Origin: Clostridia bacterium
Lineage (GTDB): Bacteria; Bacillota; Clostridia; Christensenellales; Aristaeellaceae
NCBI GenBank assembly: GCA_017395065.1
Contig: JAFPWH010000002.1
Coordinates: forward strand, 2,156 to 66,155
Length of the DNA stretch: 64,000 bases
Reading direction: 5' to 3'
Position numbers and translations under genes: made by a program. Positions within the stretch are counted from its first letter, which is position 1, and each line of letters starts with the position of its first letter. The notes under the pieces are model-generated. The model was not told where the DNA came from. It did no database searches and was given only the letters and a program-made list of their open reading frames with translations. Below are positions 2,318-36,450 of the stretch, piece after piece.

Positions 2318-4492
2318 ATGAAACGCTTGCTTATCCTTCTTCTTACGTTTGCGCTTCTTTTGCCCGCACTTGCGGAAGACAATTATCCCGAGAACATACC
2401 CTGTGAATACGAGGGGCAGACGTACTTTCTTAGCTACGACGCGCAGAGAGGCGTTTTCCGCCTGAAGGACGCAGAAGGCGCGACCGTCAGGCAAAAGCTT
2501 TTCGGGTCGCTGACGTACAGCGAGGCGACGGATACGTATCTTATCAAAATCGGCGAACAGTACGGCTACCTCGACGGCGAGGGCAACTGGCTGTTCCCGT
2601 TCGGCTTCGACGAGGCCTATGCATTTCAGGACAACGGCGTTGCGGTCGTCAGGACGGGCGACCTGTGGGGCTATGTGCGCTCGGACGGCACGTACCTTTT
2701 CGAACCGCAGTTCACAAACGACCGGGGCTGGGGCGAACGGATGCAATTCCATCACGGCGCTGCCCGCGTACGTAAAGACGGCTTATACGGCTTTATCCGC
2801 GAGGACGGCACATACCTGTTCGAACCGCAATTCACAGATGCCAAACCGTTCTGGTATTGCACGATCACGCTGGTCGGTGATGAAAACGGCCTGTACGGGT
2901 ATGTTACGACGTCAGGGGAATTCCTCTTTGAACCGCAATTTGAATGGACGTCAGAGCCGTTCATGAATACCGATGACATAGCGCGTGTTTGGAAAAACGG
3001 CCTGGCCGGTTTCATCAAAGCGGACGGTACGTTTTTGCTGGAGCCGCAGTTCGAGGAGGCGAGCGGCTTCGGATCCGCAGGATATGCTCATGTCAGAAAA
3101 GACGGGTATTACGGACTCGTCGGGCTTGACGGAGCTTACCTGATCGAGCCGCGGTTCGAGAAAGATATATATTTCTACGGCGGCCTGGCTGCGGAACCTG
3201 TTGACGGATTGTACGGCTATATCGACATGAGCGGTGCGTTCGTTATACCGCCCGCGTTCGCATATGCCTGTGCTTTTTCCGAAGAAATCGCGGCAGTAAG
3301 GAACGCCGAAGGAAAATGGGGATATATAAACACTGCCGGGGAATATGTGACGGAACCGAAATATGACAGTGCGTACGCGTTTGAGCACGGTTTCGGCATA
3401 GTGGAAATGCTCAACGGCAGGAAGACGGAGTGGTGGGGGACCGAGTTTGACGATTATTATGTCGGCCTCGTGGATCATGACGGCCGGGAGGTGCTCGAGC
3501 CGATTTACGATTATATCGAAGTTACCGAAGACGGCATCATCACGGCCGAAAAGGACGGCGAAGAACGGATCTGTACCTATGAAAACGGAAAACTCAAGGA
3601 TATCGAGATCGTGGACACGGTATTGGATCTTTCGGATTACTATCCCAACCGGGGCGAAAAAGTGGTCACGCTCGGCGAAGAGGCGGATATCGCCTGGGAC
3701 AGCGCTTTTTCCCTGCCAAGGCTCGACGGCGCGACTGCGCTTCTGCCCACCTATTCGGCGTTTGCGCAGGCGACATATCCGCAGGACACGCACTTTGAAT
3801 ATTATGACGGCGCACAGTTTACCTGTACAAAAACCAATAGGGCCTACGATAACCTGATCTACGGGGAAACGGACATCATCTTCTGCGCAGGCCCCAGCGA
3901 CGCGCAGATCGAAGACGCGCTTGACGCGGGCGTGGAGTTTGAGTTCACGCTGATGGGCTATGAATCGTTCGTATTCATCGTAAACAGGGACAATCCGCTG
4001 GAGAGCATCACGCTCGAACAGATCAAAGATATCTACAGCGGAAAGCTTACCCAATGGGACGAAGTGGGCGTAAGCGGCATGGGCGACATCATCGCCTACC
4101 AGCGCCCGAAGAACAGCGGCAGCCAAACCGCGCTGGAGAAGCTGATGGGGGATACGCCCCTGATGGAAGCGCCGCAGATGTACGTTTCCGACGGCATGGA
4201 GGACATACTGACCACCATCGAATACCGCAACTTTCCCAACGCCATCGGCTACACCTTCCGCTTTTTCTGCGCGGACATGGTTGGCAGCAAGGTAAAGCTT
4301 TTGGCGGTCGACGGCGTGGAGGCGAACGTGGAAAATATAAGAAACGGCTCCTACCCCATCATCACCCCGCTGTACGCGGTCACCAGAAAGGGCGACACGA
4401 ACCCCAACATCCAAATCTTCCTCGACTGGATCAAAGGCCCGCAGGGCCAGGAGCTGCTGGAAAAGAGCGGATATGTGGGGATCGCGGGGTAA
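2318..4492 (+). CDS. Secreted WG-repeat protein fused to a PstS-like phosphate-binding domain. Paralog of the upstream gene.
   Basis: Signal peptide MKRLLILLLTFALLLPALA. More than 10 WG repeats ('LYGYV..DGT/SGEFLFEPQF'). C-terminal PstS-like domain; the last 30 aa are identical to the upstream gene. Confidence 0.75.
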   Translation: MKRLLILLLTFALLLPALAEDNYPENIPCEYEGQTYFLSYDAQRGVFRLKDAEGATVRQKLFGSLTYSEATDTYLIKIGEQYGYLDGEGNWLFPFGFDEAYAFQDNGVAVVRTGDLWGYVRSDGTYLFEPQFTNDRGWGERMQFHHGAARVRKDGLYGFIREDGTYLFEPQFTDAKPFWYCTITLVGDENGLYGYVTTSGEFLFEPQFEWTSEPFMNTDDIARVWKNGLAGFIKADGTFLLEPQFEEASGFGSAGYAHVRKDGYYGLVGLDGAYLIEPRFEKDIYFYGGLAAEPVDGLYGYIDMSGAFVIPPAFAYACAFSEEIAAVRNAEGKWGYINTAGEYVTEPKYDSAYAFEHGFGIVEMLNGRKTEWWGTEFDDYYVGLVDHDGREVLEPIYDYIEVTEDGIITAEKDGEERICTYENGKLKDIEIVDTVLDLSDYYPNRGEKVVTLGEEADIAWDSAFSLPRLDGATALLPTYSAFAQATYPQDTHFEYYDGAQFTCTKTNRAYDNLIYGETDIIFCAGPSDAQIEDALDAGVEFEFTLMGYESFVFIVNRDNPLESITLEQIKDIYSGKLTQWDEVGVSGMGDIIAYQRPKNSGSQTALEKLMGDTPLMEAPQMYVSDGMEDILTTIEYRNFPNAIGYTFRFFCADMVGSKVKLLAVDGVEANVENIRNGSYPIITPLYAVTRKGDTNPNIQIFLDWIKGPQGQELLEKSGYVGIAG

Positions 4493-4597: not shown

Positions 4598-4935
4598 GAT
4601 GGTATAATCATTTATGCGTTGAAGAAAAGCAGTAACCGTTTTTCCGCGCCCAAAGAGAACTGCCGGGCGGTGCGAGGCAGCGGGCGGAGGCGGTGAACTC
4701 GTTTCGGAGCATCCCTTTATGGGCGGCCGCCCGCGTTACAGGGCAAAAGAGAGGGTCTTACAAGGATCAGGAAGAGTGGTACCGCGCGTGCTTTCATGCG
4801 CCTCTTCGCCTGTAAGGGCTCTTTATTTTACGCGGACGAGGCGCCGCGCAAAAGAAATAAAGCGGCTTCAGGCCCCCTCAAACAACGAAAACACAGAACG
4901 ACCGCTTCAAGCGGGATCGTCACAAAGGAGTCGAT
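4598..4935 (+). promoter_or_regulatory. Promoter (extended -10 TGgTATAAT at 4600-4608) plus a T-box riboswitch leader of leuS.
   Basis: A ~330-nt leader lies between the promoter and the leuS ATG. It carries the conserved T-box sequence 'AGUGGUACCGCG' at 4775-4786. A candidate Leu specifier CUC sits at 4698-4700 in a 'GAACUCG' context. A U-run (ctttatttt, ~4838-4846) follows a GC-rich segment. The ORF-track start at 4796 lies inside this leader. Confidence 0.6.
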
Positions 4936-4939
4936 AACA

Positions 4940-7354
<2,415 letters not shown>

Positions 7355-9509: not shown

Positions 9510-10277
9510 GTGGGGAATATGAAACTTGTATCCTGGAACGTGAACGGTCTGCGCGCGTGCGCGGAAAAGGGCTTTTACGAGAGCATGGCTTCCCTCGGCG
9601 CGGACGCGATCTGCCTGCAGGAGATCAAGCTCAAGCCCGAGCAGTTCACAAACAAAATGGACGGCTACGAAGCGTATCTGAACAGCGCCGAAAAGCCCGG
9701 CTATTCCGGAACGGCGGTGTTTTGCAAAGTAAAGCCGCTGAGCGTGAAGTACGGCATAGGCATAGGCGAGCACGACCACGAGGGGCGCGTGATCACCTGC
9801 GAATACCCCGGCTTCTTCCTCGTGTGCTGCTATACGCCCAACTCCCAGGACGGGCTCAAGCGCCTGGACTATCGAATGAAATGGGAGGACGACTTCCGCG
9901 CCTACCTTACGGAGCTCGACAAAACCAAGCCCGTGATCCTGTGCGGAGACCTGAACGTCGCCCACAACGAGATCGACCTGAAAAACCCGGACACGAACCA
10001 CATGAACGCGGGCTTTACCGATCAGGAGCGCGAAAAGATGACGCTGCTTTTGCAAAGCGGCTTTACGGACAGCTTCCGCAGCCTCTATCCGGACAAGACC
10101 GGCGCCTACTCTTGGTGGAGCTACCGCATGCGGGCGAGGGAAAGGAACGCAGGCTGGCGCATCGACTACTTCATCGTATCGGACAGGCTGAGGCCGAAGA
10201 TCAAAGACGCGAAGATCCATTCGGACATCTACGGCTCGGACCACTGCCCCGTATCGCTCGAAATCGACGAAAACTGA
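9510..10277 (+). CDS. xth: Exodeoxyribonuclease III (AP endonuclease)
   Basis: 'MKLVSWNVNGLRA', 'LQEIK', 'GDLNVAHNEIDL', 'SDHCPV' are classic ExoIII/Xth motifs. Upstream extended -10 tggTATAAT at ~9477-9485. Confidence 0.95.
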   Translation: MGNMKLVSWNVNGLRACAEKGFYESMASLGADAICLQEIKLKPEQFTNKMDGYEAYLNSAEKPGYSGTAVFCKVKPLSVKYGIGIGEHDHEGRVITCEYPGFFLVCCYTPNSQDGLKRLDYRMKWEDDFRAYLTELDKTKPVILCGDLNVAHNEIDLKNPDTNHMNAGFTDQEREKMTLLLQSGFTDSFRSLYPDKTGAYSWWSYRMRARERNAGWRIDYFIVSDRLRPKIKDAKIHSDIYGSDHCPVSLEIDEN

Positions 10278-10317
10278 CGCGCCTGACCCGGATAGGCGCA
10301 AGAAAGGAAACACAGCA

Positions 10318-11106
10318 ATGAAACAGCCCAAAACCGAGACAAAGCAGGTCCACATCGACAGCGCGCTGCCCATCTTCGCGGCGGCGGGCGTCTTCCTGCT
10401 GGGGTCTTTGATCTTTCCGGTATATAACCTGTGGGGCATCCTCGTAAGCGGCGGCCTGGCCGCGGCGACCTTCGCCGCCCTCAAACTCAAGGTCTTTAAG
10501 GGCAGGGAAGCGTCCGTTACGCACGAATACTATACCGGCGACAAGCAGCTGGACGCGCAGATCAAATACGGCTTTGAGACGATCGAGCGCTTCCGCCTGA
10601 TCGCGCAGAAGGAGGGCGACGGCGAAACGGCTGCCTCCCTTACCCGCATCGCCGACGCCGCCGAGGGCATCGTGGACGACGTGATCACCGACCCGCAGGA
10701 CAGGGGAGACGCGTCCACGTTCTTCAGCTACTATCTGCCCACGATCGACAAGCTGATGTATTACTACGAGCAGTTTTCCAAAAACGCGCACGGCGAGAAC
10801 GCGGCCTACAGCAAGGCGCGCATCGAAAGCTGCCTGGGCATGGTCGCGGGCGCGTACGAAAAGTTTCTGGACAAGCTCTACCGAAACGACGCTGCCGAGA
10901 TCAAAACCAGCATCGAGGTGCTCAAGATCATGCTGCGCAGCGAAGGCCTCGCCAGCAAGGAAGACACGAAGACCCAGATCAAAAAACCCGATATGTCCGC
11001 CTACTCTGCGTCTGAAATGGACGCCGATATAGAGAACATCAGCAAGAGCCTGCAAAGCGAAGCCGACATGGAGCTTAAGCAGGTCGCCGCCGGATCAGCT
11101 CATTAA
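10318..11106 (+). CDS. XpaC-like (5-bromo-4-chloroindolyl phosphate hydrolysis protein family) membrane protein
   Basis: N-terminal 2-TM segment followed by a helical domain. The typical partner gene telA/yaaN lies immediately downstream. Confidence 0.6.
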   Translation: MKQPKTETKQVHIDSALPIFAAAGVFLLGSLIFPVYNLWGILVSGGLAAATFAALKLKVFKGREASVTHEYYTGDKQLDAQIKYGFETIERFRLIAQKEGDGETAASLTRIADAAEGIVDDVITDPQDRGDASTFFSYYLPTIDKLMYYYEQFSKNAHGENAAYSKARIESCLGMVAGAYEKFLDKLYRNDAAEIKTSIEVLKIMLRSEGLASKEDTKTQIKKPDMSAYSASEMDADIENISKSLQSEADMELKQVAAGSAH

Positions 11107-11127
11107 AACGAAGAAGGAGAGAGAGCC

Positions 11128-12261
11128 ATGAGCGAAAACCAGTTCACCGCCACCGCCACTGCCGTCATCCCCGAGTTTGAGGAAGCCCTCAAAAAGATCG
11201 ACGTGGAGATCGACACCAATCAGGACCCCGAGAAGCAGGAGAAGGAACGCAAGGCCATCTACGACGCCATCCGCGACGTGGAGAAGACCGACATCAAGGA
11301 GACCGCCGACGTGTTCGCCTTCGGCAGCGAGATCCAGGGCGACCTGAGCCATTTCTCCGATACGGCGCTTGCCAAGGTCAAGGCCAAGGACCTGGGCGAG
11401 GTGGGCGACATGATCAGCAACCTCGTCGTTCAGCTCAAGGGCTTCACCGTGGACGAAAAGCAAAAGAAGGGCTTCTTCAGCTGGTTCAAGAAAAAGGTCA
11501 ACCGCATCGAGCTGCTCAAGACCCGCTACGACGCCGCCGCCACCAACGTGGACGAGATCGTAAAGGCCCTCAACTCCCATAAGGTCACGCTGCTCAACGA
11601 CGTCGTGCTTCTGGACGAGCTCTACGACGAGAACCTCAAGTACTTCAAGACCCTGACCGTCTACATCGGCATGGGCAAGCAGAAGCTGGAGGAGTTCCGC
11701 AAGACCGAAGTCGCCGAGGCCGTCGCGCTCGCGCAGCGCACGAACCTGCCCGAGGACGCGCAGGCCGCAAAAGATTTGAACGACAAGGCCGACCGCTTCG
11801 AAAAGAAGCTCTACGACCTGGAGCTGACCCGCAACATCTCCATCCAGATGGCGCCGCAGATCAGGCTGCTCCAGTCCTCCGACACCGTGATGGTCGAAAA
11901 GATCCAGTCCACCATCGTCAACACCATCCCCGTATGGAAGAGCCAGATGGTCATGGCGCTGGGCATCGAGCACAGCCAGCAGGCGATGGAGGCGCAGCAG
12001 GCGGTCACGAACCTGACCAACGAGCTGCTCAAGAAGAACGCCGAGAGCCTGCACATGGCGACCGTCGAGACCGCCAAGGCGGCCGAGCGCGGCATCATCG
12101 ACATCGAGACGCTGACCTACACCAACCAAAAGCTCATCGACACGATGGACGAGGTGCTCCGCATCCAGAACGAGGGCAGGGAAAAGCGCCGCGAGGCCGA
12201 GCAGACCCTCAGGAACATTGAGCAGGAGCTCAAGGCCAAGCTGCTCGAGTTCAAGGGCTGA
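11128..12261 (+). CDS. telA: Toxic anion resistance protein TelA/KlaA (YaaN) family
   Basis: 377 aa. Conserved TelA core 'LNDVVLLDELYDENLKYFKTLTVYIGMGKQKLEEF'. RBS GAAGGAGAG. Confidence 0.85.
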   Translation: MSENQFTATATAVIPEFEEALKKIDVEIDTNQDPEKQEKERKAIYDAIRDVEKTDIKETADVFAFGSEIQGDLSHFSDTALAKVKAKDLGEVGDMISNLVVQLKGFTVDEKQKKGFFSWFKKKVNRIELLKTRYDAAATNVDEIVKALNSHKVTLLNDVVLLDELYDENLKYFKTLTVYIGMGKQKLEEFRKTEVAEAVALAQRTNLPEDAQAAKDLNDKADRFEKKLYDLELTRNISIQMAPQIRLLQSSDTVMVEKIQSTIVNTIPVWKSQMVMALGIEHSQQAMEAQQAVTNLTNELLKKNAESLHMATVETAKAAERGIIDIETLTYTNQKLIDTMDEVLRIQNEGREKRREAEQTLRNIEQELKAKLLEFKG

Positions 12262-20962: not shown

Positions 20963-20988
20963 AGGGGCTGTGGCCCCTCCAAACCTCC
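20963..20988. repeat. Palindromic intergenic element TTGGAGGGGC-tgtg-GCCCCTCCAA (copy 2)
   Basis: Same arms as the element at 12298-12325. Confidence 0.7.
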
Positions 20989-21047
20989 CTCGGGCTTTTG
21001 TGTTCGTGCAACACCCCTCTGTCCATTCAAAGATCCTGAAAGGAGGA

Positions 21048-22070
21048 ATGCGCGTGAGCGGCTACAAACCGCCATTTCACATGACGGATAAAATGACGTC
21101 GCTGACTGCGGACATCTGCGAATTGGCCGGCAGGATGAGCGTTTTGCAGCCGGGCACTTTCAGCCCCCGCCTGCGGCGCATAAACCGCATCCGCACGATC
21201 CATTCCTCCCTTGCGATCGAACAGAACACCCTCGCGCTTTCGCAGGTAACGGCGATTTTGGACGGCAAGCGCGTTCTTGGCAGCCCAGACGAGATCAGAG
21301 AGGTGCAAAACGCCTATGCGGCCTATGAAATGCTGCCGCGCCTCGACCCGCTCAATGTGGACGATCTTCTGAAAGCCCATGCGCTCATGATGGACGCTCT
21401 CACGGCGGACAGCGGCGCTTTCCGCTCGGGCGCAGTGGGCGTCTTCGACGGAAACAGGCTGATCCACATGGCCCCGCCGGCTTCGTTCGTGCCCGGGCAG
21501 ATACACGATCTGCTTTCCTGGTATCGGGATTCCCGGCTGCATCCGCTGATCAAAAGCGCCGTGTTTCACTATGAATTCGAATTCATCCATCCCTTCTCGG
21601 ACGGCAACGGGCGCATGGGGCGGATGTGGCACAGTTTGCTTTTGAGCAAGTGGAAGGAACTCTTCCTGTGGCTGCCGGTGGAGGAACTGATCCGCTCCCA
21701 TCAGCAGGAATACTACGCGGCCCTTCGCGCGGCGGACGCGCAAGCGGACAGTTCGGGCTTTGCGGAATTGATGCTGGAAATCATACTGGCCGCGCTGGAA
21801 GGACTTGCGCGCGAAGTGCTTTTGACCGACCAAGTTACCGACCAAGTTACCGACCAAGTTGAAGCGCCGGAGGAAAGGCTGCTGAGCGCGCTTGGCGAAG
21901 ACACGCTTTCTGCTCGCGAGCTGATGGCGCGTCTGGGCCTTTCGCACAGGCAGACTTTCCGTAAAAACTACCTCGACCCGGCGCTGGAACGCGGCCTGAT
22001 CGAACGCACGGTTCCCGATAAACCCAACAGCAAAAATCAGAAGTACAGAAAAATCAGATCAAAGCCCTGA
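21048..22070 (+). CDS. Fic family protein (Fic/Doc AMPylation-type domain) with a C-terminal winged-helix-like region
   Basis: Fic motif 'HPFSDGNGRMGR'. RBS AGGAGG. Start ATG 21048 or GTG 21054. In-frame 12-bp x3 repeat encoding TDQVTDQVTDQV at 21823-21858. Confidence 0.85.
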   Translation: MRVSGYKPPFHMTDKMTSLTADICELAGRMSVLQPGTFSPRLRRINRIRTIHSSLAIEQNTLALSQVTAILDGKRVLGSPDEIREVQNAYAAYEMLPRLDPLNVDDLLKAHALMMDALTADSGAFRSGAVGVFDGNRLIHMAPPASFVPGQIHDLLSWYRDSRLHPLIKSAVFHYEFEFIHPFSDGNGRMGRMWHSLLLSKWKELFLWLPVEELIRSHQQEYYAALRAADAQADSSGFAELMLEIILAALEGLAREVLLTDQVTDQVTDQVEAPEERLLSALGEDTLSARELMARLGLSHRQTFRKNYLDPALERGLIERTVPDKPNSKNQKYRKIRSKP

Positions 22071-22227
22071 CGCCGGAAAGACGCGGCGGCAGGCTTTTCA
22101 TATTTTACAAACTTTTAATACAAAAATTGTCTCGTTTTTTGTCTCCCGATTGTCTTTATATACAGAGCAGAAAAAAACGATCCCGCGCGTACGGAAATCG
22201 GGCGGCGCGGGGCGCGGAAAGGATTTC

Positions 22228-22758
22228 ATGAGCAGCGAGCGCGAAGACGGGCTGTTTCTCGACGAACTGTACGACAAATATGCCTCCGTCATGTTCAGAA
22301 CGGCCCTGCGCTTCGGCGTAAGCGAGGCCGCGGCCGAGGACATCGTGTCCGACGGCATGCTTTCGCTCATGAAAAACGTGTCCACGCTCAGGAAGCTGGA
22401 CGGCAAAAAGCTTTCCGCCTATATCGTTACTGCGGTGCGCCGCGCCGCCATCAACCGCATAAGCCGCGACACGCTGCGCCGCGACAGGGAAAAGAGGGCC
22501 GCGCTCTCAAGCCTGTACAGAGCGGACGAGGCGACCGACCCGTACGACGCCGGGGCGGGGGACGAGCTGGACAAGGTCGTCGAGATCATTGAGCGCCTGC
22601 CGCCCCGCGAAAGGGCTTGCATAAAGCTAAAATACCTGCTGGACAAAAGCAGCGCGCAGATCGCGCTGGAGACCGACCTGAGCCCCGGGAGCGTGCGCAA
22701 ATACATAAGCCGGGCGCTCAAACGCATACGAAAAGAACTGGAAGAAAGCGGGGTGTGA
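22228..22758 (+). CDS. Sigma-70 family (ECF-like) RNA polymerase sigma factor
   Basis: 176 aa. Region-2-like N-terminus (LYDKYASVMFRTALRFGVSEAAAEDIVSDGMLSL). Region 4 HTH (LPPRERACIKLKYLLDKSSAQIALETDLSPGSVRKYISRALKRIRKEL). Confidence 0.8.
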   Translation: MSSEREDGLFLDELYDKYASVMFRTALRFGVSEAAAEDIVSDGMLSLMKNVSTLRKLDGKKLSAYIVTAVRRAAINRISRDTLRRDREKRAALSSLYRADEATDPYDAGAGDELDKVVEIIERLPPRERACIKLKYLLDKSSAQIALETDLSPGSVRKYISRALKRIRKELEESGV

Positions 22759-22762
22759 AACG

Positions 22763-24271
22763 GTGAGCCGAAACAAAGACAGTCTCGGGGAAAGACAGCT
22801 CGAAGCGCTCATACGCCGCGCCCTGAAGCGCGAGGAGGCGCGCCGCAGGGAAGAGACCGCCCCGGAAGGCGGCTTCGAACCCACGCGCAGGCAAAAGCAG
22901 CGCGCCTATAAGCTGTACGCGGAAAAGCTCAGAGCCGAGCGCGAAGAAACCGATTATGCGCAAAAGCGACCCGTAAGCGGCCTTTTCCGCCTCACGGCGG
23001 CGCTCGCGGTCACGGCCGCGCTCGCGCTTCTGACCGCGCTTTGCCTGCCGACGATCAAAACCCTGTTAAACGGCGGACGGGAGGACACGACCGCGGACGC
23101 CGCCTTCGGCGTTGCCACCGCACAGCCCGTCGACGGCGCGCCGGGCGAGCAGGGCGGGGACGTGCAAGAGGAAGAAGAGACCCCGGAGGAAGGCGAAGGA
23201 TCGGACGGAAAACAACACACGCGCCCCTCTCCGAAAATCGTCTCCGTCACGGGAAAGCCCGCGTCTTCGACGCCCACAGTCACGCCTGCCGCGACGCCTG
23301 CGATCACGCCGACCGTGACCCCGACGGTCGCGCCGACTGCGACCCCAACGGTCACGCCGACCGCGACCCCAACGGTCACGCCTACAGCGACGCCCACGGT
23401 CACGCCGACTGCGACCCCGACAGTCACGCCGACCGCGACGCCTACGCCCACGCCGGCCGCGACTCCCACGGCCGCGCCGACCGCGACGCCCACGGCCACC
23501 CCGACGCCCGCGCCGTTCTTCCTGATCGAAAACCGCCAGTATTTTACATTGATCGAGCTTTATCTCCGGCAGGGGAATTATGCGACGATAAATAACCGCA
23601 TTTACCAAAGATACGTCACCGAGGGCGAAAAGGCGGTGGTTTACCTGCGCGATGAGGATCTGAGCCGCGAAGGTATGTTTCAGATCAGCGCGTCTTTCAG
23701 AGGGCATATGTGGACAAAGCCGCAATACGCTACGCTGTATTCGAACTGGCCTGACGTCGATTTAAGCGAACTTACGGGCCGCAAGCTCGTGATCTATGAG
23801 GACGAGAACAAGAAACCGGCCTGCAGGATCGAGGAATTGACGGACGAAGAAAGAGCGCAGTACGCAGTCCCTGCGGCAAAGCCCACGGCTTCGCCGACGC
23901 CTCCCGTGGACGGCACGATCCCGGAAAACTGCTTCCGGCTGCGCTATACCGCGACGAACGGGTATTACAGCCTCGCCGAACTGTACCTCTGGCAGGACGG
24001 ATATGCTTCGGGCACGAACCGTTTGAGTGCCTTTTTGAGCTACGGCAGCGAAACGTTTATCGCGCTCACGCAGGAGGACCTCGAAAGGGGCGGAACGTTT
24101 ACGGTAAGGGCCTGCTTCGTCCGGAAAAACAATTACAGGGGCGGGCATCCGGACATCCCGGCCACGAGCATCTCGGACACGTATTCCATAGAGCTCGAAG
24201 CGCTGATCGGCCGCACGCTGGTCATCAAAAACGGGAAGGACAGCGACAGCGTCATTTTTGAAATAGAATAG
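22763..24271 (+). CDS. Putative single-pass membrane anti-sigma factor with a Pro/Thr-rich linker and two extracellular beta-rich domains
   Basis: GTG start 4 nt after the sigma stop (translational coupling). Basic cytoplasmic N-terminus. TM helix (LFRLTAALAVTAALALLTALCL). (TPTVTPTA)n linker. Two C-terminal ~110-aa domains related to the C-terminal domains of the three downstream S1 paralogs (end motif 'IGRTLVIKNGKDSDSVIFEIE'). Confidence 0.55.
   Translation: MSRNKDSLGERQLEALIRRALKREEARRREETAPEGGFEPTRRQKQRAYKLYAEKLRAEREETDYAQKRPVSGLFRLTAALAVTAALALLTALCLPTIKTLLNGGREDTTADAAFGVATAQPVDGAPGEQGGDVQEEEETPEEGEGSDGKQHTRPSPKIVSVTGKPASSTPTVTPAATPAITPTVTPTVAPTATPTVTPTATPTVTPTATPTVTPTATPTVTPTATPTPTPAATPTAAPTATPTATPTPAPFFLIENRQYFTLIELYLRQGNYATINNRIYQRYVTEGEKAVVYLRDEDLSREGMFQISASFRGHMWTKPQYATLYSNWPDVDLSELTGRKLVIYEDENKKPACRIEELTDEERAQYAVPAAKPTASPTPPVDGTIPENCFRLRYTATNGYYSLAELYLWQDGYASGTNRLSAFLSYGSETFIALTQEDLERGGTFTVRACFVRKNNYRGGHPDIPATSISDTYSIELEALIGRTLVIKNGKDSDSVIFEIE
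23270..23520 (+). repeat. In-frame ~24-bp tandem repeats encoding the PT-rich linker
   Basis: ACGCCGACCGCGACCCCAACGGTC-like units repeated about 10 times. Confidence 0.8.
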
Positions 24272-24291: not shown

Positions 24292-25302
24292 ATGAGAAAA
24301 TGGACGATCTTCTGGCTGATCGCGGCGCTTTTGTGCCCGTGCGCGGCGCTGGCGGCGGGCTTCACCTCGGACGCGCAGGCGATCAACGCGGCCTGCCAAA
24401 GCGTGGTGAAGCTGGACGCCTACGACGAAGAGGACAGGCTGATCGCAAGCGGCAGCGGCTTTGCGGCCTTCGACGCAGGCTGCCTCGTGACGGACTGCCG
24501 GCTGCTGGCAGGCGCGGCGCGCCTTCAGGCGACCGACGATACCGGGACGGTCTACGCCCTGAAAAGCGCGCTGTGCACGGACGAAGCCGTCGGCGCTGCG
24601 ATACTGCTGTTCGACGGGGAGACGGCGCTGACGCCGCTCAGGCTCAGCGAAGAAAAGACCGTCTACCGCGGCTCGCCCGTGGCGGCGATCTGCTCTCCCA
24701 AGGGCTATGCCAACAACGTCTCCACGGGCAACGTGAGCGCCGTGACGACCGACGAAAACGGCTTAACACGCATCCGCTTCAACGCGCCCGTGTCCGCGGG
24801 CGGCGCCGGCGGCGCGCTGATGAACGACGAGGGAGAAGTGATCGGCATGATCGGCGATCCCGCGCCGGGCGCGCAGAACGCCAACACCGCCGTGAGCATA
24901 GCGCACGTTATCGGACTGTATGAAGCGCACAAAGGCGACGAGCCGATCCCGCTTTCCGCCGCGGCGGCAGGCGGGGCGGCGCAAACGCAGGCGCGCGAGT
25001 TCACGCTCAAAAATTCGGCGGGCTTTGCGATGAGCGAGGTCTACCTCTATCCCGACGGCGCGGCCGCCTGGGGCGACGCCCGCAACACTTCCGGCTGGGT
25101 CCAGCGGGAGGCGAGCCTGACCGTCGTCCTCAGCGACGAGGAGCTTTCGGCCCGCACGACCTGGACGTTCAACTTCTGCTTTTACTATAACGGCTGGCCG
25201 TGTTACTTCGAATACACCGGCCTGCGCCTCAAAGACATCCTCGGCCGCACGCTCGTGGTCACGATGACGCCGGGCAAGGTGATCGAAATCACGATCGAGT
25301 AA
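24292..25302 (+). CDS. Secreted trypsin-like (S1 family) protease paralog 1. Catalytic triad fully substituted, so a predicted pseudoprotease.
   Basis: Signal peptide. ~50% identical to paralog 3, but H->R (LVTDCRLL vs LITNCHVI), D->G (AVGAAILL vs GYDIAILL), S->A (GGAGGAL vs GSSGGAL). C-terminal shared domain ends 'ILGRTLVVTMTPGKVIEITIE'. Confidence 0.7.
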   Translation: MRKWTIFWLIAALLCPCAALAAGFTSDAQAINAACQSVVKLDAYDEEDRLIASGSGFAAFDAGCLVTDCRLLAGAARLQATDDTGTVYALKSALCTDEAVGAAILLFDGETALTPLRLSEEKTVYRGSPVAAICSPKGYANNVSTGNVSAVTTDENGLTRIRFNAPVSAGGAGGALMNDEGEVIGMIGDPAPGAQNANTAVSIAHVIGLYEAHKGDEPIPLSAAAAGGAAQTQAREFTLKNSAGFAMSEVYLYPDGAAAWGDARNTSGWVQREASLTVVLSDEELSARTTWTFNFCFYYNGWPCYFEYTGLRLKDILGRTLVVTMTPGKVIEITIE

Positions 25303-25429
25303 AGCCTTCCCCTCCGGGGAAGGTGGCTCGCCGCGGGCGAGACGGATGAAGTCGCCCCCGCACCCCACCGCGCAGATCCCAAAGAACACAACAATCCATA
25401 ATCCGCAAAAAAAAGGAGGAACACGATCC

Positions 25430-26917
25430 ATGAAACGTATCCTTTCGGCGCTGCTGGTGCTCATGCTGGCATTCGCCGCGCCCGCCGCGCTTTCCGGGCA
25501 GCCCTTCGCCCGCGATTACGCGGCCATGAATGAGGCCGCCGCGAGCGCGCTGATCCTGACTGCCTACGACAAGGACGGAAACGAAACCGTCACCTGCAGC
25601 GGCTTCATCGCCTTTGACGACAGCCACGCCGTCACGACCTGGGCGGCGGTCAGTCAGGCAGCGTCCCTCAAAGTCGTGGCCGACGACGGAACGGACCTCG
25701 GAGAAACGAAGGTGCTCGGCTGCGATTCGGACTGCAACCTCGCCATCCTTGCCTTCGGCGAGCCCACGGGCCTTCAGCCGCTTGCGTTCAACGAAAGCGG
25801 CGAAGTGCGCAGGGGCGCGTCCTGCGTCAGCATCGGCGCGCAGGACGGCGTGAACGCGATCAACACCGGCAACATTTCAAACAGCTTCAGCGCGGAGGGG
25901 CTGGACCTGATCCAGTTCACCGCGCCCGTCGCGGAAGGCGTTTCGGGCAGCGCGCTGCTGAACGAAAACGGCCTGGTCGCGGGCGTCACGATGTTCGGCC
26001 TGAGCGGCGAGATCGGCTACACCGTGGTGCAAAACATGAACTTTGCCCTGAGCGTCCGCCACGTCACGGAGCTCTGGGACTACTGCAGGGACGACGAGCC
26101 GGTGGAATTGAGTAACTGGGGCATAACCGATATCGGTGTGCACAGCGATGAAGTCTCCGACCTCGTAAAGTCGCGGGAAGTCACGCTCGTGAACGACAGC
26201 GGGTACAGCGTGACGGATTTCAGGGTCAACGTCGGACGTTCCTCTGTCACACTGGGAGGCTGGTTCAAAAACGGCGAAACCGCTACGCTCGACCTTGCGA
26301 AGCTCGGCGACGACCCTGAAACAGTTGTCGAAGTGATATTCTATATGCGGGTTTCCGGTCGCAGCGAGCAGTTCAACGTAATGACCACGCTGGGCGAATT
26401 GTGGGAGCAAACCTACAGCATCGAAGCGCACAGCGGCTACGGTGTGAAACCTGACTTCGTGCGCAGGGAAGCCGAAAACGCGCCTTCTTCCGAGCGCCGC
26501 CACATTAAAGAAGCGGTGCAGACAGAAGAATCGTTCACGATCCCCGAAACCATCGAGCGCGAGCACAATCTCGAAAAAAACACCTGTATCATCATAAACG
26601 ACACGAAGTTTGCCATTACGTACATCACGATGTCTGCCGAAGGCGTCTACGTAAGCCTGCTTTCGGAGCGCGTTGAACCCGGCGAATTTGCCGTTGTGGA
26701 ACTGCCGGAGCGTTTTGTGAACAATGGCGGCAAGCTTCGCTGGAAATTCAGAGTGGGTTTCGATTCCTCCGCTTACGGTTCCTGGTCGGCCTGGCTGGAC
26801 ATGGATACAAAAAACGAGAACGAGTTGTGCGGGCAAATTCTGCACGCCGAATACGATGAAAAAACCAGACAATTCAGCTTCGCAGCTCATCCGTCAAAAG
26901 GAGGCGACATAGAATGA
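25430..26917 (+). CDS. Secreted trypsin-like (S1) protease paralog 2 with two extra C-terminal domains. Triad His and Asp are substituted.
   Basis: RBS AAGGAGG; signal peptide. 'AVTTWAAV' replaces the His motif. 'DCNLAIL' gives N in place of the catalytic D. 'GVSGSALLNENG' retains Ser. The stop overlaps the start of paralog 3 (ATGA). Confidence 0.65.
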   Translation: MKRILSALLVLMLAFAAPAALSGQPFARDYAAMNEAAASALILTAYDKDGNETVTCSGFIAFDDSHAVTTWAAVSQAASLKVVADDGTDLGETKVLGCDSDCNLAILAFGEPTGLQPLAFNESGEVRRGASCVSIGAQDGVNAINTGNISNSFSAEGLDLIQFTAPVAEGVSGSALLNENGLVAGVTMFGLSGEIGYTVVQNMNFALSVRHVTELWDYCRDDEPVELSNWGITDIGVHSDEVSDLVKSREVTLVNDSGYSVTDFRVNVGRSSVTLGGWFKNGETATLDLAKLGDDPETVVEVIFYMRVSGRSEQFNVMTTLGELWEQTYSIEAHSGYGVKPDFVRREAENAPSSERRHIKEAVQTEESFTIPETIEREHNLEKNTCIIINDTKFAITYITMSAEGVYVSLLSERVEPGEFAVVELPERFVNNGGKLRWKFRVGFDSSAYGSWSAWLDMDTKNENELCGQILHAEYDEKTRQFSFAAHPSKGGDIE

Positions 26918-27948
26918 AACGACTGATTTCGACATTGCTTGTTCTGACGGTTTTGTTTTCCTGTTCCGCATTCGCGGCGGGCTATTCCCTCGATCCGGAC
27001 GCCATCAACGAAAGCGCGCAGTCGGTCATGCTGCTGGCAGTATACAACATCGCAGACCGGCTCATCGGCACGGGCAGCGGCTTTGTGGCGTTCTCGGACG
27101 AATACCTGATCACCAACTGTCACGTGATCCGGGACGCGGACGTGATCGTAGCTTACACGGACAGCGGAGAAACACGCATGATCAACCGTGTATTATGCGC
27201 CGACGAGGGATACGACATCGCCATACTGCTCTTTGACGAGGCGTCAGGCGTAAACCCGCTCGAACTGTACGAAGGGGAAACCGTGCGCGGGGAGAGCGTC
27301 GTGGCCATCGGAAGTCCCATCGGCTTTAAGAACACCGTCTCGATCGGAAATCTCTCCTCCGCCGGAGAAGACGAAAAGAGCGGGTACTTACAGTTCACTG
27401 CGCCGATTTCCTCCGGCTCCAGCGGCGGCGCACTGCTGAACGACGACGGTTTGGTCATCGGCATTACCAGCGCCACGCGCGCGGGCGAGGACACGCAGAA
27501 CATGAATTTCGCGGTGAGCATCAAGCACGCCGTCGAACTGTACAATGCCCACAGCGCGGATGAGGCCGTGGATCTCAAAAACTGGCGGGACGTAAATTAC
27601 GGCGAAAAACGCAAGCAGGAGAGGACCGTTCCCGACGCCCGCGAATTCACGATGCGAAACTATGCTGGCTTCTCCATCAGCGAGATCTACCTCTATCCCG
27701 AGGGTTCCTCCAACTGGGGCAAGGTCAAGAACACGAGCGGCTGGCTGTACAAAAACGAAAGCATGGTCATCAGGGTGACCGACGAGGAGGCCGCGGCCGA
27801 TACGCTGTACAACCTGAACTTCTGCTTCTACTACAACAAGTACCCGTGCTACATGCAGTACGAGGGCATAGACATCGCCGAGATCCTGGGCCGGACGATC
27901 ACGATCTACCTGGACAACGGAAACACGATCCGCGTGGAGATCGAATAG
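26914..27948 (+). CDS. Secreted trypsin-like (S1, DegP-like without PDZ) serine protease paralog 3 with an intact catalytic triad
   Basis: His 'LITNCHVI', Asp 'EGYDIAILLFDE', Ser 'GSSGGALLNDDG'. C-terminal shared domain '...FCFYYNKYPCYMQYEG...ILGRTITIYLDNGNTIRVEIE'. Confidence 0.75.
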   Translation: MKRLISTLLVLTVLFSCSAFAAGYSLDPDAINESAQSVMLLAVYNIADRLIGTGSGFVAFSDEYLITNCHVIRDADVIVAYTDSGETRMINRVLCADEGYDIAILLFDEASGVNPLELYEGETVRGESVVAIGSPIGFKNTVSIGNLSSAGEDEKSGYLQFTAPISSGSSGGALLNDDGLVIGITSATRAGEDTQNMNFAVSIKHAVELYNAHSADEAVDLKNWRDVNYGEKRKQERTVPDAREFTMRNYAGFSISEIYLYPEGSSNWGKVKNTSGWLYKNESMVIRVTDEEAAADTLYNLNFCFYYNKYPCYMQYEGIDIAEILGRTITIYLDNGNTIRVEIE

Positions 27949-28049: not shown

Positions 28050-28745
28050 TTACTTCCTGTTTTTGTTCAATATCTGCAAGAGCCGCAAAAACAGGTTGAT
28101 GATGTCGAGATAGAGGTTTGCGGAGGCGGCGATGGCGTTGTTGACCGTGCAGGCGCACACGTTGCATCTTGCCCAGTCGAAGCCGATGAACATCGCAAAC
28201 AGCCCCGCGCCCAGGTACGCCCAGACGAGCTCCATGCGGGAGGAGCGGAACAGAAGCAGCGTGATCAGTTCGCCCACGATCAGTATGATCAGCCCGACGC
28301 CCAGCGCGCGGCCGATGGACAAAAACAGGTTCGGGAAGATGCTTCCGAGCACCACGAACACGGCGGTGATGATCGCCGTCATCAGCACGGCGGTCGAAAT
28401 GACCGAGCTGGGGTAGCCCTGCAGCGCCACGCACAGGATCAGCCCCACCGGCAGCGCGATCAGGTTGTAGCCGATGAAGGAAGTGACGGGGTTGTCTCTG
28501 CGCACGAGTACCGCGCCCAGGATCACGCAGACCAGATAGATCAGGAGGATCGGGAGCGCGCCGCCGTTCATCGCAAATTCGCTTACTTTTTCGCCCAGCA
28601 GCTTCACCATCAGAAAGTTGAGCGCAAAGCCCCAAAGCAGCAGGCCGCCGATCAGCAGGTTGTATACCCTGCGGCTGACGGCGATGTCGTTTTCCTTATA
28701 GGCCTTTCGTTCCTCGAGGGCGGCCTTCGTGTTTCCGAATGTCAT
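28050..28745 (-). CDS. Bax inhibitor-1/YccA family membrane protein
   Basis: 231 aa with 7 predicted TM helices. Typical BI-1 profile (..GYNLIALPVGL.., ..GAGLFAMFIGFD.., NIAASANLYLDIINLFL). Confidence 0.8.
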   Translation of the reverse strand: MTFGNTKAALEERKAYKENDIAVSRRVYNLLIGGLLLWGFALNFLMVKLLGEKVSEFAMNGGALPILLIYLVCVILGAVLVRRDNPVTSFIGYNLIALPVGLILCVALQGYPSSVISTAVLMTAIITAVFVVLGSIFPNLFLSIGRALGVGLIILIVGELITLLLFRSSRMELVWAYLGAGLFAMFIGFDWARCNVCACTVNNAIAASANLYLDIINLFLRLLQILNKNRK

Positions 28746-28898
28746 TTATTATCTCTCCTTTTTGCCTCGTTTGTGTTTTGCAAAAGTGCTTACACTATAT
28801 TATACGCGAAAGAAAGCGAATTGTACACAGTTTTCTCTTGATTTTTTTCGCTTTTATGCTATTATATAATAGACTATATATTAAGTGAGGTGCTTCCT

Positions 28899-30404
28899 AT
28901 GGAGGTTCGTACCCGTTTTGCACCCAGCCCGACCGGCTACATGCATCTGGGAAACCTGAGAAGCGCGCTGTACACCTATCTCTGGGCGCGCAAAAACGGC
29001 GGAAAATTTATTCTGAGAATAGAGGACACCGACCAGGAACGCGAGGTTCCCGGTGCGGTTGAAAAGATATACGCATCTTTGAACGTCGCGGGCCTCAAAT
29101 ACGACGAGGGCCCGGACGTCGGCGGCGACTACGGCCCCTACGTGCAGAGCCAGCGCAAGGACATGTACCTGCCCTACGCAAAGCAGCTCATCGAAAGCGG
29201 CCACGCCTACTACTGCTTCTGCACCAAGGAGCGGCTGGACGAGGCGCGCGCCGAAGCGGAAAAGAAGGGCGAGACCTTCAAATACGACAAAAAGTGCCTG
29301 CACCTTTCCAAAGAAGAGGTTCAGGCGCGCCTGGACGCGGGCGAACCCTACGTCATCCGCCAGAACATACCGCTCGAGGGCAAGGCGGGCTTTGACGACG
29401 TGATCTACGGCCACGTGGAGGTGGACTGCGCGACGCTTGACGACAACGTGCTCATCAAGGCGGACGGTCTGCCCACCTACAACTTTGCCAACGTCATCGA
29501 CGACCACACTATGTGCATAACCCACGTCATGCGCGGCAACGAGTACCTTTCCAGCGCACCCAAGTACAACCTGCTCTACGAGGCGTTCGGCTGGAAGCCG
29601 CCCGTGTACGTGCACCTGACGCCGGTCATGTGCCGCGACGTACAGAAGGACGAAAACGGTCAGCCCATCCTGGGAGAGGACGGGCAGCCCGTGGAATACG
29701 TGCGCAAGCTTTCCAAGCGCAAGGGCGACCCGACGTTCGAGGACCTTCTGTCCCGCGGATACCTGGTCGAGGCGGTCATCAACTACATGACGCTGCTGGG
29801 CTGGAGCCCCAAGGGCGAGGAGGAGTTCTTCAGCCTCTCCGAGCTCGAAAAGCTGTTCGACCTGGAGGGCCTGAGCAAATCGCCCTCGATCTTCGACATG
29901 CAGAAGATGAACTGGTTCAACGCCGAGTACATCCGGAGGCTGAGCCCCGAAAAGTATCTGGAAATGGCAAGGCCGTGGCTCGATCAGGTGCTCTCCGAAG
30001 AGAAATTCGACTACAGGCGCCTGTGCGAGCTTTTGCAAAGCCGCACCGAGTATTTCGCCCAGCTGCCGGACATGGTCCGCTTCCTGAAGGACATGCCGGA
30101 TTTTCCGAACGATTTCTACGTCAACAAAAAGCAAAAGAGCACCCTCGAAAGCAGCGTAAGCGCGCTCAAGGAGGCCAAAGAACTGCTCGAAACCGTGACG
30201 GACTGGTCCGAAAGCAATCTGCACGACGTCGTCATGGAGAAGATCGCTTCCCTCGGCATCAAGAACGGGCAGATGCTCTGGCCGCTCAGGATCGCCGTCT
30301 CCGGGCAGCAGAACACGCCCGGCGGCGCGTTTGAGATCATGTATTTGCTTGGCAGAAGCGAAACGCTTGCCCGCCTGAACGCTTCCCTCGAAAGGCTTGT
30401 ATAA
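28899..30404 (+). CDS. gltX: Glutamyl-tRNA synthetase
   Basis: 'TRFAPSPTGYMHLGNLRSALYTYL' (HIGH region) and 'KLSKR' (KMSKS). RBS AAGTGAGG. The ATG at 28899 is preferred over the GTG at 28890. Promoter -10 TATAAT at ~28866. Confidence 0.95.
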   Translation: MEVRTRFAPSPTGYMHLGNLRSALYTYLWARKNGGKFILRIEDTDQEREVPGAVEKIYASLNVAGLKYDEGPDVGGDYGPYVQSQRKDMYLPYAKQLIESGHAYYCFCTKERLDEARAEAEKKGETFKYDKKCLHLSKEEVQARLDAGEPYVIRQNIPLEGKAGFDDVIYGHVEVDCATLDDNVLIKADGLPTYNFANVIDDHTMCITHVMRGNEYLSSAPKYNLLYEAFGWKPPVYVHLTPVMCRDVQKDENGQPILGEDGQPVEYVRKLSKRKGDPTFEDLLSRGYLVEAVINYMTLLGWSPKGEEEFFSLSELEKLFDLEGLSKSPSIFDMQKMNWFNAEYIRRLSPEKYLEMARPWLDQVLSEEKFDYRRLCELLQSRTEYFAQLPDMVRFLKDMPDFPNDFYVNKKQKSTLESSVSALKEAKELLETVTDWSESNLHDVVMEKIASLGIKNGQMLWPLRIAVSGQQNTPGGAFEIMYLLGRSETLARLNASLERLV

Positions 30405-34740: not shown

Positions 34741-36450
34741 ATGGAGACAGCCGAGAAAAAAGCAAGCAATTTCATAGAAGAATTCGTCGAAGAGGATCTG
34801 AAAAGCGGCCGCTACGACCACGTGCGCACCCGCTTTCCGCCCGAGCCCAACGGCTATCTGCACATCGGCCACGTAAAGGCGCTGTGCATCGATTTCGGCA
34901 TCGCCCAGAAGTACGGCGGTGTGACGAACCTGCGCTTCGACGATACCAACCCCGCCAAGGAGGACACGGTCTTTGTCGAGGGCATCCAGCGGGACATCGA
35001 ATGGCTGGGCTTCAAATGGGAAAAGCTCTACTTTGCCAGTGACTTTTTCCCGCGCCTGTACGAGATCGCGCAGGGACTGATCAAAAAAGGCCTCGCCTAC
35101 GTGGACGACCAAAGCCCCGAGGAGATGCGCAAAAACCGCGGCACGCTCACGCAGCCCGGCGTCGACAGCCCCTGGAGAAACCGCAGCGTGGAGGAGAACC
35201 TGGATCTGTTCGAGCGCATGAAAAACGGCGAATTCCCGGACGGAAGCCGCGTGCTCAGGGCCAAGATCGACATGGCCTCCCCGAACGTCCTCATGCGCGA
35301 CCCTACGATCTACCGCATCAAGAGATGCCATCACCACAGGACGGGCGACGAATGGTGCATCTACCCGATGTACGATTTCCAGCACCCGATCCAGGATGCC
35401 ATCGAGGGCATCACGCACTCGCTGTGCTCCCTCGAATATGAGATCCACCGCCCTCTGTACGAGTGGATGGTCAATAACGCCGGCTTCGAGCAGCCGCCGC
35501 GCCAGATCGAGTTCGCGCGCCTGAACCTGACCCGTACGGTCATGAGCAAGCGCTATCTGCGCTACATGGTCGAAAACCATCTGGTCAACGGCTGGGACGA
35601 TCCGCGCATGCCCACGCTGGTCGGCATGAAGCGCAGGGGCTACACCGCCGAGGCCATCAAGGACTTCCTCTCCCGCGTCGGCGTGGCCAAGGCAGACAGC
35701 GTCGTGGACGGCGCGCTGCTGGAGGCCTGCGTGCGCGATGCGCTGGGCGATACGGCGCCGAGGGCCATGGCGGTCCTGAACCCCCTCAAGGTCACCTTCG
35801 TCAACTGGGACGAGGACAAGACGGACGAGATCGAGATGGAGAACCATCCGGACCATCCCGAAATGGGCACGCGAAAGCTGCATTTCACGAAGCACGCCTA
35901 CATCGACGCCGAGGACTTCATGCTCGACCCGCCCAAGAAGTTCTTCCGCCTCGCACCCGGCCGCGAGGTGCGCCTGAAGGGCGCCTACATCGTAAAGTGC
36001 GAGGACGTGAAGCTGGACGAAAATGGGAACCCCGTCGAGCTGCTCTGCTCCGTGGACCTCGACAGCCGTTCCGGCAGCGAAGGCGCGAACCGCAAGGTCA
36101 AGGGCACGCTGCACTGGCTGAGCGAAAAAGACGCGCTGCCCGCCGAGATCAGGCTCTACGAGCCCCTGATCAACGACGAGGAGCCCTGCGCCGAGGAAGA
36201 GGACAAGAGCGAGGAGGCCGAGGAGACCGACGCGCCCAAGGGCATCAACCTGAACATCAACCCCGACAGCCTGAAGGTCGTCTCCAATGCGCTGGTCGAG
36301 CCGGCCATCGCCCAAAGCGAGGTCGGCAGCCGCTTCCAGTTCCTGCGCACGGGCTACTTCTGCAAGGACCCGGATTCCACGAACGAAAAACCGGTCTTCA
36401 ACCGCATCGTCCCGCTCAAGGACAGCTGGGCGAAGGTCAACAAAAACTGA
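34741..36450 (+). CDS. glnS: Glutaminyl-tRNA synthetase
   Basis: 'RFPPEPNGYLHIGHVKALCIDFGIAQKYGGVTNLRFDDTNP' (HIGH region) and 'VMSKR' (KMSKS). C-terminal anticodon-binding beta-barrels with an acidic insertion (EPCAEEEDKSEEAEETD). Confidence 0.9.
   Translation: METAEKKASNFIEEFVEEDLKSGRYDHVRTRFPPEPNGYLHIGHVKALCIDFGIAQKYGGVTNLRFDDTNPAKEDTVFVEGIQRDIEWLGFKWEKLYFASDFFPRLYEIAQGLIKKGLAYVDDQSPEEMRKNRGTLTQPGVDSPWRNRSVEENLDLFERMKNGEFPDGSRVLRAKIDMASPNVLMRDPTIYRIKRCHHHRTGDEWCIYPMYDFQHPIQDAIEGITHSLCSLEYEIHRPLYEWMVNNAGFEQPPRQIEFARLNLTRTVMSKRYLRYMVENHLVNGWDDPRMPTLVGMKRRGYTAEAIKDFLSRVGVAKADSVVDGALLEACVRDALGDTAPRAMAVLNPLKVTFVNWDEDKTDEIEMENHPDHPEMGTRKLHFTKHAYIDAEDFMLDPPKKFFRLAPGREVRLKGAYIVKCEDVKLDENGNPVELLCSVDLDSRSGSEGANRKVKGTLHWLSEKDALPAEIRLYEPLINDEEPCAEEEDKSEEAEETDAPKGINLNINPDSLKVVSNALVEPAIAQSEVGSRFQFLRTGYFCKDPDSTNEKPVFNRIVPLKDSWAKVNKN

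Follow-up and report, generated by a model that had tools for sequence, protein, structure and literature searches.

The 64,000-nucleotide stretch of DNA analysed here (the window) comes from a Clostridia bacterium and contains five closely packed genes on the + strand, encoding a sigma factor, a membrane-bound sensor and three HtrA-like proteins, P1, P2 and P3. The first gene (22150..22758, with a likelier start at 22228) specifies a sigma factor of the extracytoplasmic function (ECF) type, recognised by its Pfam and NCBIfam matches. The second (22763..24271) encodes a putative single-pass anti-sigma factor or sensor of 502 amino acids (aa) with no match in either database. The other three encode secreted proteins whose sole Pfam match is Trypsin_2: P1 (24292..25302; 4.8e-15), P2 (25430..26917; 9.8e-15) and P3 (26914..27948; 4.6e-24). 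A single copy of one shared domain forms the C-terminus of P1 and of P3, a tandem module of two copies ends P2, and a further two copies make up the folded part of the sensor outside the cell.

Within the sensor, the first copy (D1) covers aa 249-357 (23507..23833; 48.3 bits against a family hidden Markov model, HMM) and the second (D2) aa 388-502 (23924..24268; 44.1 bits), both also delimited in an AlphaFold2 (AF2) model. The copy in P1 lies at aa 232-336 (24985..25299; 98.3 bits) and that in P3 at aa 240-344 (27631..27945; 115.3 bits). The two copies in P2 are divergent; D1 (26171..26464) scores 16.5 bits and D2 (26576..26890) 19.0 bits, and both are outlined by AF2 strands. All six are on the + strand. 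A preliminary description of the locus, made from the sequence alone, had proposed that 23528-24271 of the sensor gene encodes two domains related to the C-termini of P1 and P3 and to extra domains in P2. Its coordinates and quoted peptides are correct: the segment encodes aa 256-502 of the sensor, with two domains of about 105-115 aa.

In pairwise BLASTP, D1 and D2 of the sensor match each other at 47 bits, D1 matches the C-terminus of P3 at 35 bits and D2 that of P1 at 34 bits, and the C-termini of P1 and P3 match at 125 bits. Identity between domain pairs is 21-28%, and the P2 domains reach at most 21.6 bits against the others, which is unconvincing. The domains of the sensor, P1, P3 and P2 are regarded as homologous because profile tests settle what these pairwise scores merely suggest. 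Separate profiles for sensor-, protease- and secreted-type domains, built from 33 family proteins described below, were compared by hhalign. The sensor-type profile matches the protease type at 99.4% (E 5e-21) and the secreted type at 99.5%, and the last two match each other at 99.9%. The family HMM was made with the window sequences and their close relatives excluded, and for each of the six window domains none of 2000 shuffles attained the real score. In a six-frame scan of the whole window, this HMM matched only the four operon proteins (P2 at E 1e-7, the next match at E 1.3). The P2 copies thereby read as divergent members of the family. The preliminary description had staked its finding on HMM-HMM comparison, and there the domains do align: those of the sensor with the C-termini of P1 and P3 and, more distantly, with the extra domains of P2, at hhalign probabilities of 96-99.8%. 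It had also given every copy the same closing strand. The motif 'LxGRTLxI ... [IV]E[IV]E-COOH' is present in both sensor domains, P1 and P3; P2 retains the terminal '..IE' only.

The preliminary description has to be revised in one respect: the nearest relative of the sensor ectodomain is the P2-type tandem module and not the domain of P1 and P3. Sensor-type ectodomains align with that module end to end, through the first domain, the linker and the second domain. In BLASTP, the sensor-like homologs P0013 and P0015 match the P2-type protein P0023 at 73-76 bits over about 250 residues. By hhalign, the sensor module matches the P2-type module at 99.8% (E 4e-28, 222 columns) and the subgroup that includes the window P2 at 96.1% (E 3.6e-9, 207 columns); between the two P2 subgroups the probability is 98.2%. 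Secreted proteins composed of tandem domains are the closest relatives of the single domains found in P1 and P3. Judged from these alignments, the sensor ectodomain copies the tail of P2-type pseudoproteases; the relation between the two is collinear and ancient, and not a recent local duplication.

The protease parts of P1-P3 belong to the S1C/HtrA family, with the Trypsin_2 matches, PDB matches to DegP, HtrA, DegS and AlgW, and NCBIfam HtrA/DegS/DegP models that cover the protease parts only. No PDZ domain is present in P1-P3 at E<=1 in Pfam; their C-terminal region is a beta-sandwich in the AF2 models. The shared domain sits at the PDZ position of HtrA proteases, in one copy in P1 and P3 and in two in P2. 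The catalytic columns were set by aligning P3 to DegP-like and HtrA structures (TNxHV, D[IL]A[IV]L and GxSGG[AP]L). In the His/Asp/Ser columns, P3 has His70, Asp101 and Ser170, P1 has Arg, Gly and Ala, and P2 has Ala, Asn and Ser. The earlier view of three protease paralogs holds for P3; P1 and P2 lack catalytic residues and are predicted pseudoproteases, leaving P3 alone as catalytically competent.

The same division extends to relatives, among them those in L013, L014, L015, L017, L020 and L024. All P3-type proteins seen (one domain, encoded last in the cluster) keep His-Asp-Ser. None of the P2-type proteins seen (two or three domains) has the His, and in most, that of the window included, Asn replaces the Asp. 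P2-type and P3-type proteins thus appear, from their residues, to form a conserved pseudoprotease/protease pair. The state of the P1-position protein varies: it is dead in the window, L006, P0007, P0009 and L017, and intact in L013, L020 and L024. A link between a dead P1-type protein and the presence of the sigma/sensor pair was considered and rejected, as the pair is missing beside the dead P1-type protein of L019 and present in L020 and L024, where the first protease is active. P1-P3 have cleavable-looking signal peptides (A-x-A before AGF or AGY) and no anchor; in a monoderm cell, something must therefore hold these proteins at the surface.

The remainder of the sensor is organised as a transmembrane regulator. 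The cytoplasmic N-terminal segment (aa 1-72; 22763..22978, + strand), delimited by alignment with homologs, is basic and is presumed to bind the sigma factor. It is followed by the one transmembrane helix, read from the sequence (aa 73-96, GLFRLTAALAVTAALALLTALCLP; 22979..23050), with Lys/Arg preceding, and by an extracytoplasmic linker of about 150 aa, first acidic and then Thr/Pro-rich (23051..23506). The DNA for the Thr/Pro-rich part, at 23268-23505, is a tandem repeat of 24/48/72 bp (Tandem Repeats Finder; a 24-bp unit in about 10 copies, with 80% matches). In a different sample, a sensor variant of 471 aa that is 95% identical (P0003) has 31 aa fewer in this repeat-encoded linker, and linker length is therefore variable between strains. 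The sensor and its sigma-adjacent homologs have in common the N-terminal motif (D/E)xLDALIRRAL ... RAYxLF, a transmembrane helix and a long Pro/Thr-rich linker. As in anti-sigma factors of class I, the gene directly follows that of the sigma factor and the product is single-pass with its N-terminus inside; the domain that marks this class (ASD, zf-HC2 or RskA-type) has no match in the sensor, where only a short two-helix motif is conserved. A Pfam profile search gave no RsgI_N match to the sensor. Its position, translational coupling, topology and conserved N-terminal motif point to an anti-sigma function.

The sequence family of the shared domain is undescribed, as had been supposed. A Pfam scan of 17 family members (E<=1) gave no family that matched more than one of them, the domain is absent from the NCBIfam matches of the window proteins scanned, and sequence and profile searches of the PDB with the domain returned nothing below E 0.7. 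It falls outside the sequence profiles of the known beta-sandwich families (PKD, Big, FN3, CARDB, transthyretin-like, carbohydrate-binding modules (CBMs) and the PepT extracellular domain). AF2, run on a 17-row alignment, models the sensor ectodomain as two seven- to eight-stranded beta-sandwiches with a disordered linker between them (mean pLDDT, the per-residue confidence, of 78). Structural comparison of this model with the PDB gave scores of 8.6 for the PepT2 extracellular domain, 8.2 for an uncharacterised Eubacterium rectale protein (2mca), 7.7 for both the AlgF C-terminal domain and the HGSNAT luminal domain, 7.4 for Pneumolysin domain 4 and 6-7 for transthyretin-like proteins. Foldseek also ranked the PepT1/PepT2 extracellular domains first, with both tandem domains aligned (E 1e-5). 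In the PepT extracellular domain, two immunoglobulin (Ig)-like domains stand in tandem, tethered to the membrane, and bind trypsin with micromolar affinity (PMC4597091). At 10-11% identity and with no sequence-level signal (5a9h, 5a9d, 5a9i), the likeness is an analogy only; the fold class is common, and homology is unproven.

The model thus suggests a common Ig/transthyretin-like sandwich adopted by a new and very small sequence family. A ubiquitous fold had been named beforehand as the outcome that would count against the finding; the fold is indeed generic and Ig-like, yet the family is tiny and its co-occurrence specific, and the finding stands. In the full-length AF2 model of P2 (pLDDT 70; 55-78 in the C-terminal part), both extra domains have the same order of strands and short helices. 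The inter-domain geometry of this model is unreliable (predicted template modelling score 0.48), and the packing of the domains on the protease cannot be read from it. Near-invariant positions in all subfamilies are a Glu of strand 2 and, within one loop, an Asn/Arg pair. The loop YPxxxxxWGxxRN is strongly conserved in the P1/P3/secreted subfamily and degenerate in the sensor/P2 subfamily.

The family is very small. Word-indexed searches of 5.8 billion proteins returned one match with the sensor ectodomain, one with a domain profile and none with the P2 tail. The family was recovered only when a five-sequence profile was run exhaustively, as an HMM, against 1.84 billion representative proteins; 33 of these matched at E<=1e-3. 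These include sensor-like proteins with the N-terminus, transmembrane helix, Pro/Thr linker and two domains (P0003, P0013, P0015, P0017), HtrA-like proteins with one domain (P0004, P0005, P0007, P0009, P0019) or with two or three (P0023, P0030), secreted proteins of two tandem domains only (nine examples) and fusions to TPR/Cys-repeat or other modules (P0022, P0025-P0028). Across one genome per species (185,579 species), a pattern scan located five loci, all in metagenome-assembled genomes (MAGs) of uncultured Clostridiales/Clostridia whose names suggest the rumen or the goat abomasum. Six loci were found in a scan of 241 million metagenome records.

The co-occurrence of the domain with a sigma/sensor pair and a protease cluster recurs in divergent genomes. 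The order sigma factor, sensor, single-domain HtrA-like protein, P2-type and P3-type is found in three systems: the window, L020 (a longer contig of the P0013 system) and L024, whose sensors are 22-39% identical. In L006, a sensor homolog is followed by a P1-type gene. L004 and L015 contain a P2-type/P3-type pair on contigs that begin inside the P2-type gene, with the upstream region not covered. An upstream open reading frame (ORF) of L004 was considered as a sensor and rejected, being the tail of the P2-type pseudoprotease. Taken together, the gene orders suggest that the protease/pseudoprotease cluster is the core unit, to which a sigma/sensor pair with a matching ectodomain has been added in part of the lineage.

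The sigma factor has the features of the ECF (group 4) class, with regions 2 and 4 only (Pfam Sigma70_r2, 3e-13; Sigma70_r4_2, 1e-16) and a score of 84.2 bits over the cut-off of 42.9 for NCBIfam TIGR02937 (sigma70-ECF). Its ORF begins at TTG 22150; the ATG at 22228, after GGAAAGGA, gives a product of 176 aa, a length like that of homologs, and is the likelier start. The sensor start codon lies 4 nt past the sigma stop codon. All sigma-adjacent homologs of the sensor gene likewise begin no more than 4 nt from the sigma stop codon or overlap it, with 4-nt overlaps in L007, L008, L010 and L024. P2 is 495 aa from MKRIL, with its start taken as on public contigs. The P3 start codon overlaps the P2 stop codon, and P2/P3 gene pairs in general either overlap or are separated by 12-30 nt.

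The operon probably ends at a 13-bp GC-rich hairpin followed by UUUU, 3' of P3 (27994..28025, + strand; -29.4 kcal/mol, z -3.9); none of 200 shuffles is as stable. The 127-nt spacer between P1 and P2 holds two small hairpins lacking a U-tract (25304..25341, + strand; -25.2 kcal/mol, z -2.2), which may be a site of processing or attenuation. Three direct TTGTCT repeats, TTGTCTCG, TTGTCTCC and TTGTCTTT, with starts 13 nt apart, are found at 22100-22165, upstream of the sigma gene; they may be a promoter or operator. The upstream region of L010 has a GTTTGTCTTAATTATGCACAGAGC-like sequence in common with the window. No clear ECF -35/-10 is found in 22100-22165, a scan for sigma-70 consensus promoters gave no match, and the regions upstream of the sigma genes share just a loose A-rich 'AAAAC(G)' with no convincing -10.

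The operon is flanked upstream by a gene for a Fic/DOC-family protein with a Fic-like C-terminal domain (20970-22070, +) and downstream by a convergent gene for a Bax1-I (YccA-like) membrane protein (28050-28745, -), which the hairpin after P3 faces. Elsewhere in the window, 2-4492 encodes two adjoining large secreted proteins in which a PBP_like_2 solute-binding domain is joined to 5-7 WG_beta_rep repeats, an unusual fusion. The tRNA synthetase genes of the window include one for LeuRS (4796-7354) and, 4 kb from each other, two of class Ic (28890-30404 and 34741-36450), one GltX-like with Anticodon_2 and one GlnS/GluRS-like with tRNA-synt_1c_C.

The homology and the architectures are solid, and alongside them stand the loss of catalytic residues in P1 and P2, the conserved gene order and the narrow taxonomic distribution; the mechanism is what we infer from these. 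The reading preferred here, and held tentatively, is that the five genes form an envelope-signalling operon and a regulated-proteolysis circuit like that of DegS and RseA, in which the shared domain would act as the recognition module in place of PDZ. The domain would bind itself or one common envelope ligand, and active P3 would be brought to the sensor by means of it. P3 would then make the site-1 cut in the exposed linker or the ectodomain of the sensor, followed by intramembrane proteolysis and release of the sigma factor. P2, a non-cutting counterpart of the sensor ectodomain, and in this genome P1 also, would serve as a competitor or adaptor that sets the supply of P3 to the sensor. Proteases that lack an anchor and a sensor linker of about 150 aa, of the wall-spanning type, fit the bringing together of the components at the cell surface.

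A more specific form of this reading is that the sensor ectodomain mimics the regulatory tail of P2 and that both compete for P3 or for its C-terminal domain. This is unlikely on present evidence. If true, sigma activity would read the pool of free protease against that of pseudoprotease, giving a self-titrating proteostasis circuit built on a domain family that is in no database.

Several observations weigh against the proteolytic circuit. The term anti-sigma, used in the preliminary description, is carried by position, coupling, topology and the N-terminal motif; no known anti-sigma domain model in Pfam or NCBIfam matches the sensor at E<=1, whether searched as the whole protein or as aa 1-169. 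No M50 site-2 protease is encoded among the 20 window genes scanned, which make up part of the window. A P2-type/P3-type pair occurs with no adjoining sigma factor or sensor in L012, L013 and L014, and L019 has a P1-type gene without the sigma/sensor pair, followed by a cut-off gene of 143 aa. The P0017 sensor gene is followed by a tRNA synthetase gene and not by a protease, which means that docking on the sensor cannot be the primary role of the domain. In unrelated contexts, there are secreted proteins of just two domain copies, in keeping with a general binding domain. The L017 locus (314-1599, -, and 1889-3322, +) encodes a related ECF sigma factor together with a membrane protein that has the N-terminal motif LDTMIRLALK and a DUF4367 ectodomain (2.5e-10), divergently from a dead P1-type gene and a P2-type gene. 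A DUF4367 sensor beside the same protease cluster indicates coupling with no strict need for the shared domain. Physical contact between sensor and protease, cleavage of the sensor, the ligand or other signal, and control by the sigma factor of its own operon are also inferred.

Two further points concern these loci. The 334-aa gene after the P0017 sensor was considered as a protease and rejected; it is most likely a truncated tRNA synthetase at a contig end, with the same 136-nt offset as in L009. In L014 (2636-5668), the P2-type/P3-type pair lies beside homologs of exonuclease III, Halogen_Hydrol and TelA; in the window, the exonuclease III, Halogen_Hydrol and TelA genes are at 9510-12261, about 12 kb upstream. 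A related genome of the L014 type thus seems to lack the sigma factor, the sensor, P1 and the intervening genes.

The alternative that survives best is the sensing of a common ligand with no docking between proteins, which is possible but rather doubtful. The proteases and the sensor would bind one envelope or environmental molecule, e.g. a glycan, a wall polymer or an unfolded secreted protein. The proteases would find their substrate or location by the domain, the sensor would detect the same molecule, and the operon would be switched on without P3. This is the logic of RsgI and sigma-I in Clostridium thermocellum, where anti-sigma ectodomains (CBM3, CBM42, PA14, GH10) are the same kinds of module as those of the regulated enzymes and sense the substrate of these enzymes, and where RsgI9 has an S1C-peptidase-like ectodomain that binds cellulose, a non-catalytic use of the protease fold (PMC12203970). 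Among PDB sequences, RsgI9 (7sjy) ranks second as a match to P3 (69.7 bits). The presence of the domain in secreted tandem proteins and in TPR/Cys-repeat and other fusions is as expected of a portable binding domain, and the near-invariant Asn/Arg pair and Glu extend across the subfamilies. The window also has a carbohydrate-degrading neighbourhood (GH5, GH38, a sulfatase and sugar-binding proteins). However, the YPxxxxxWGxxRN loop, being degenerate in the sensor/P2 subfamily, speaks against a single identical binding site. A common ligand also leaves unexplained why a pseudoprotease with a sensor-like module always accompanies the active protease.

It is improbable that the domain is a plain surface-retention or spacer element, shuffled among neighbours with no meaning for signalling, while the sigma factor and sensor respond to something else. 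A generic sandwich with no close solved relative, proteases that have no other anchor, and the occurrence both of protease clusters without the sigma/sensor pair and of a sensor without a neighbouring protease would suit such a role. Against it, the sensor ectodomain is the tandem module alone, with no other part for sensing, the five-gene layout has been retained in three systems despite the divergence of their sensors, and the relation between the sensor and P2 modules is collinear and ancient. Chance or compositional similarity between regions that are not homologous, which the low identities and the weak P2 scores of BLASTP might suggest, has next to no probability and is rejected on the hhalign probabilities, the independent HMM that surpasses all 2000 shuffles for six of six domains, the window-wide scan confined to four operon proteins and an identical predicted order of secondary structure.

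Pairs of ECF sigma and anti-sigma factors are a major route of transmembrane signalling in bacteria, and in most cases neither the signal nor the site-1 protease is known. Here, the genome itself suggests candidate partners for the sensor. The result is a small and tractable system for target recognition by an HtrA protein that lacks PDZ, for the role of a pseudoprotease and for a sensor that mimics a product of its regulon. It also defines an undescribed extracytoplasmic domain family, tiny and known only from uncultured Clostridia MAGs and metagenome contigs that, by their names, derive from the ruminant gut.

The closest known counterparts are the Sigma-E/RseA/DegS system of E. coli and the AlgU/MucA/AlgW system of Pseudomonas, which likewise combine an ECF sigma factor, a single-pass anti-sigma factor with an extracytoplasmic part and an S1C/HtrA protease. 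The precedent for an HtrA-type site-1 protease that acts on an anti-sigma factor is AlgW and MucA, as outlined in PMC8545111. P3 matches the structures of DegS, DegP and AlgW over the protease domain, and the non-catalytic C-terminal domain of the protease as the element of sensing or recognition is a feature of the DegS and AlgW systems that is proposed here also. In DegS/RseA and AlgW/MucA that domain is PDZ, in contrast to the unrelated beta-sandwich of P1-P3. DegS has one PDZ domain and DegP two; here there is one shared domain in P1 and P3 and two in P2. Further differences are that the proteases described here are secreted instead of membrane-anchored, are encoded within the sigma operon and include two pseudoproteases among three HtrA-like proteins. 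RseA and MucA have no protease-borne domain, whereas the sensor here carries that of the proteases.

The sigma-I/RsgI systems are similar in that a Clostridial anti-sigma ectodomain is a module of the secreted proteins of the pathway and in that a protease fold is used non-catalytically. They differ in the sigma factor, which here is of the ECF type, and in the RsgI N-terminal domain, which is absent; the present pair thus falls outside the sigma-I/RsgI class. In contrast to RsgI9, the protease-like domains here are on separate secreted proteins, and the sensor has only the accessory beta-sandwich.

A degenerate HtrA-like protein encoded beside an active one is also known from MamE and MamO of magnetotactic bacteria, which are presumed partners. 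These act in the context of the magnetosome, have PDZ and other domains and are not accompanied by a sigma/anti-sigma pair. Weak NCBIfam matches to MamE and MamO are found among the HtrA-like proteins of the window. Set against these systems, the combination of an ECF sigma/anti-sigma pair with HtrA-type proteolysis is already known, as are modular sensors that share the modules of their regulon. What is new here is the domain family, the replacement of PDZ, the obligatory pseudoprotease partner and a sensor ectodomain that copies the tail of the pseudoprotease.

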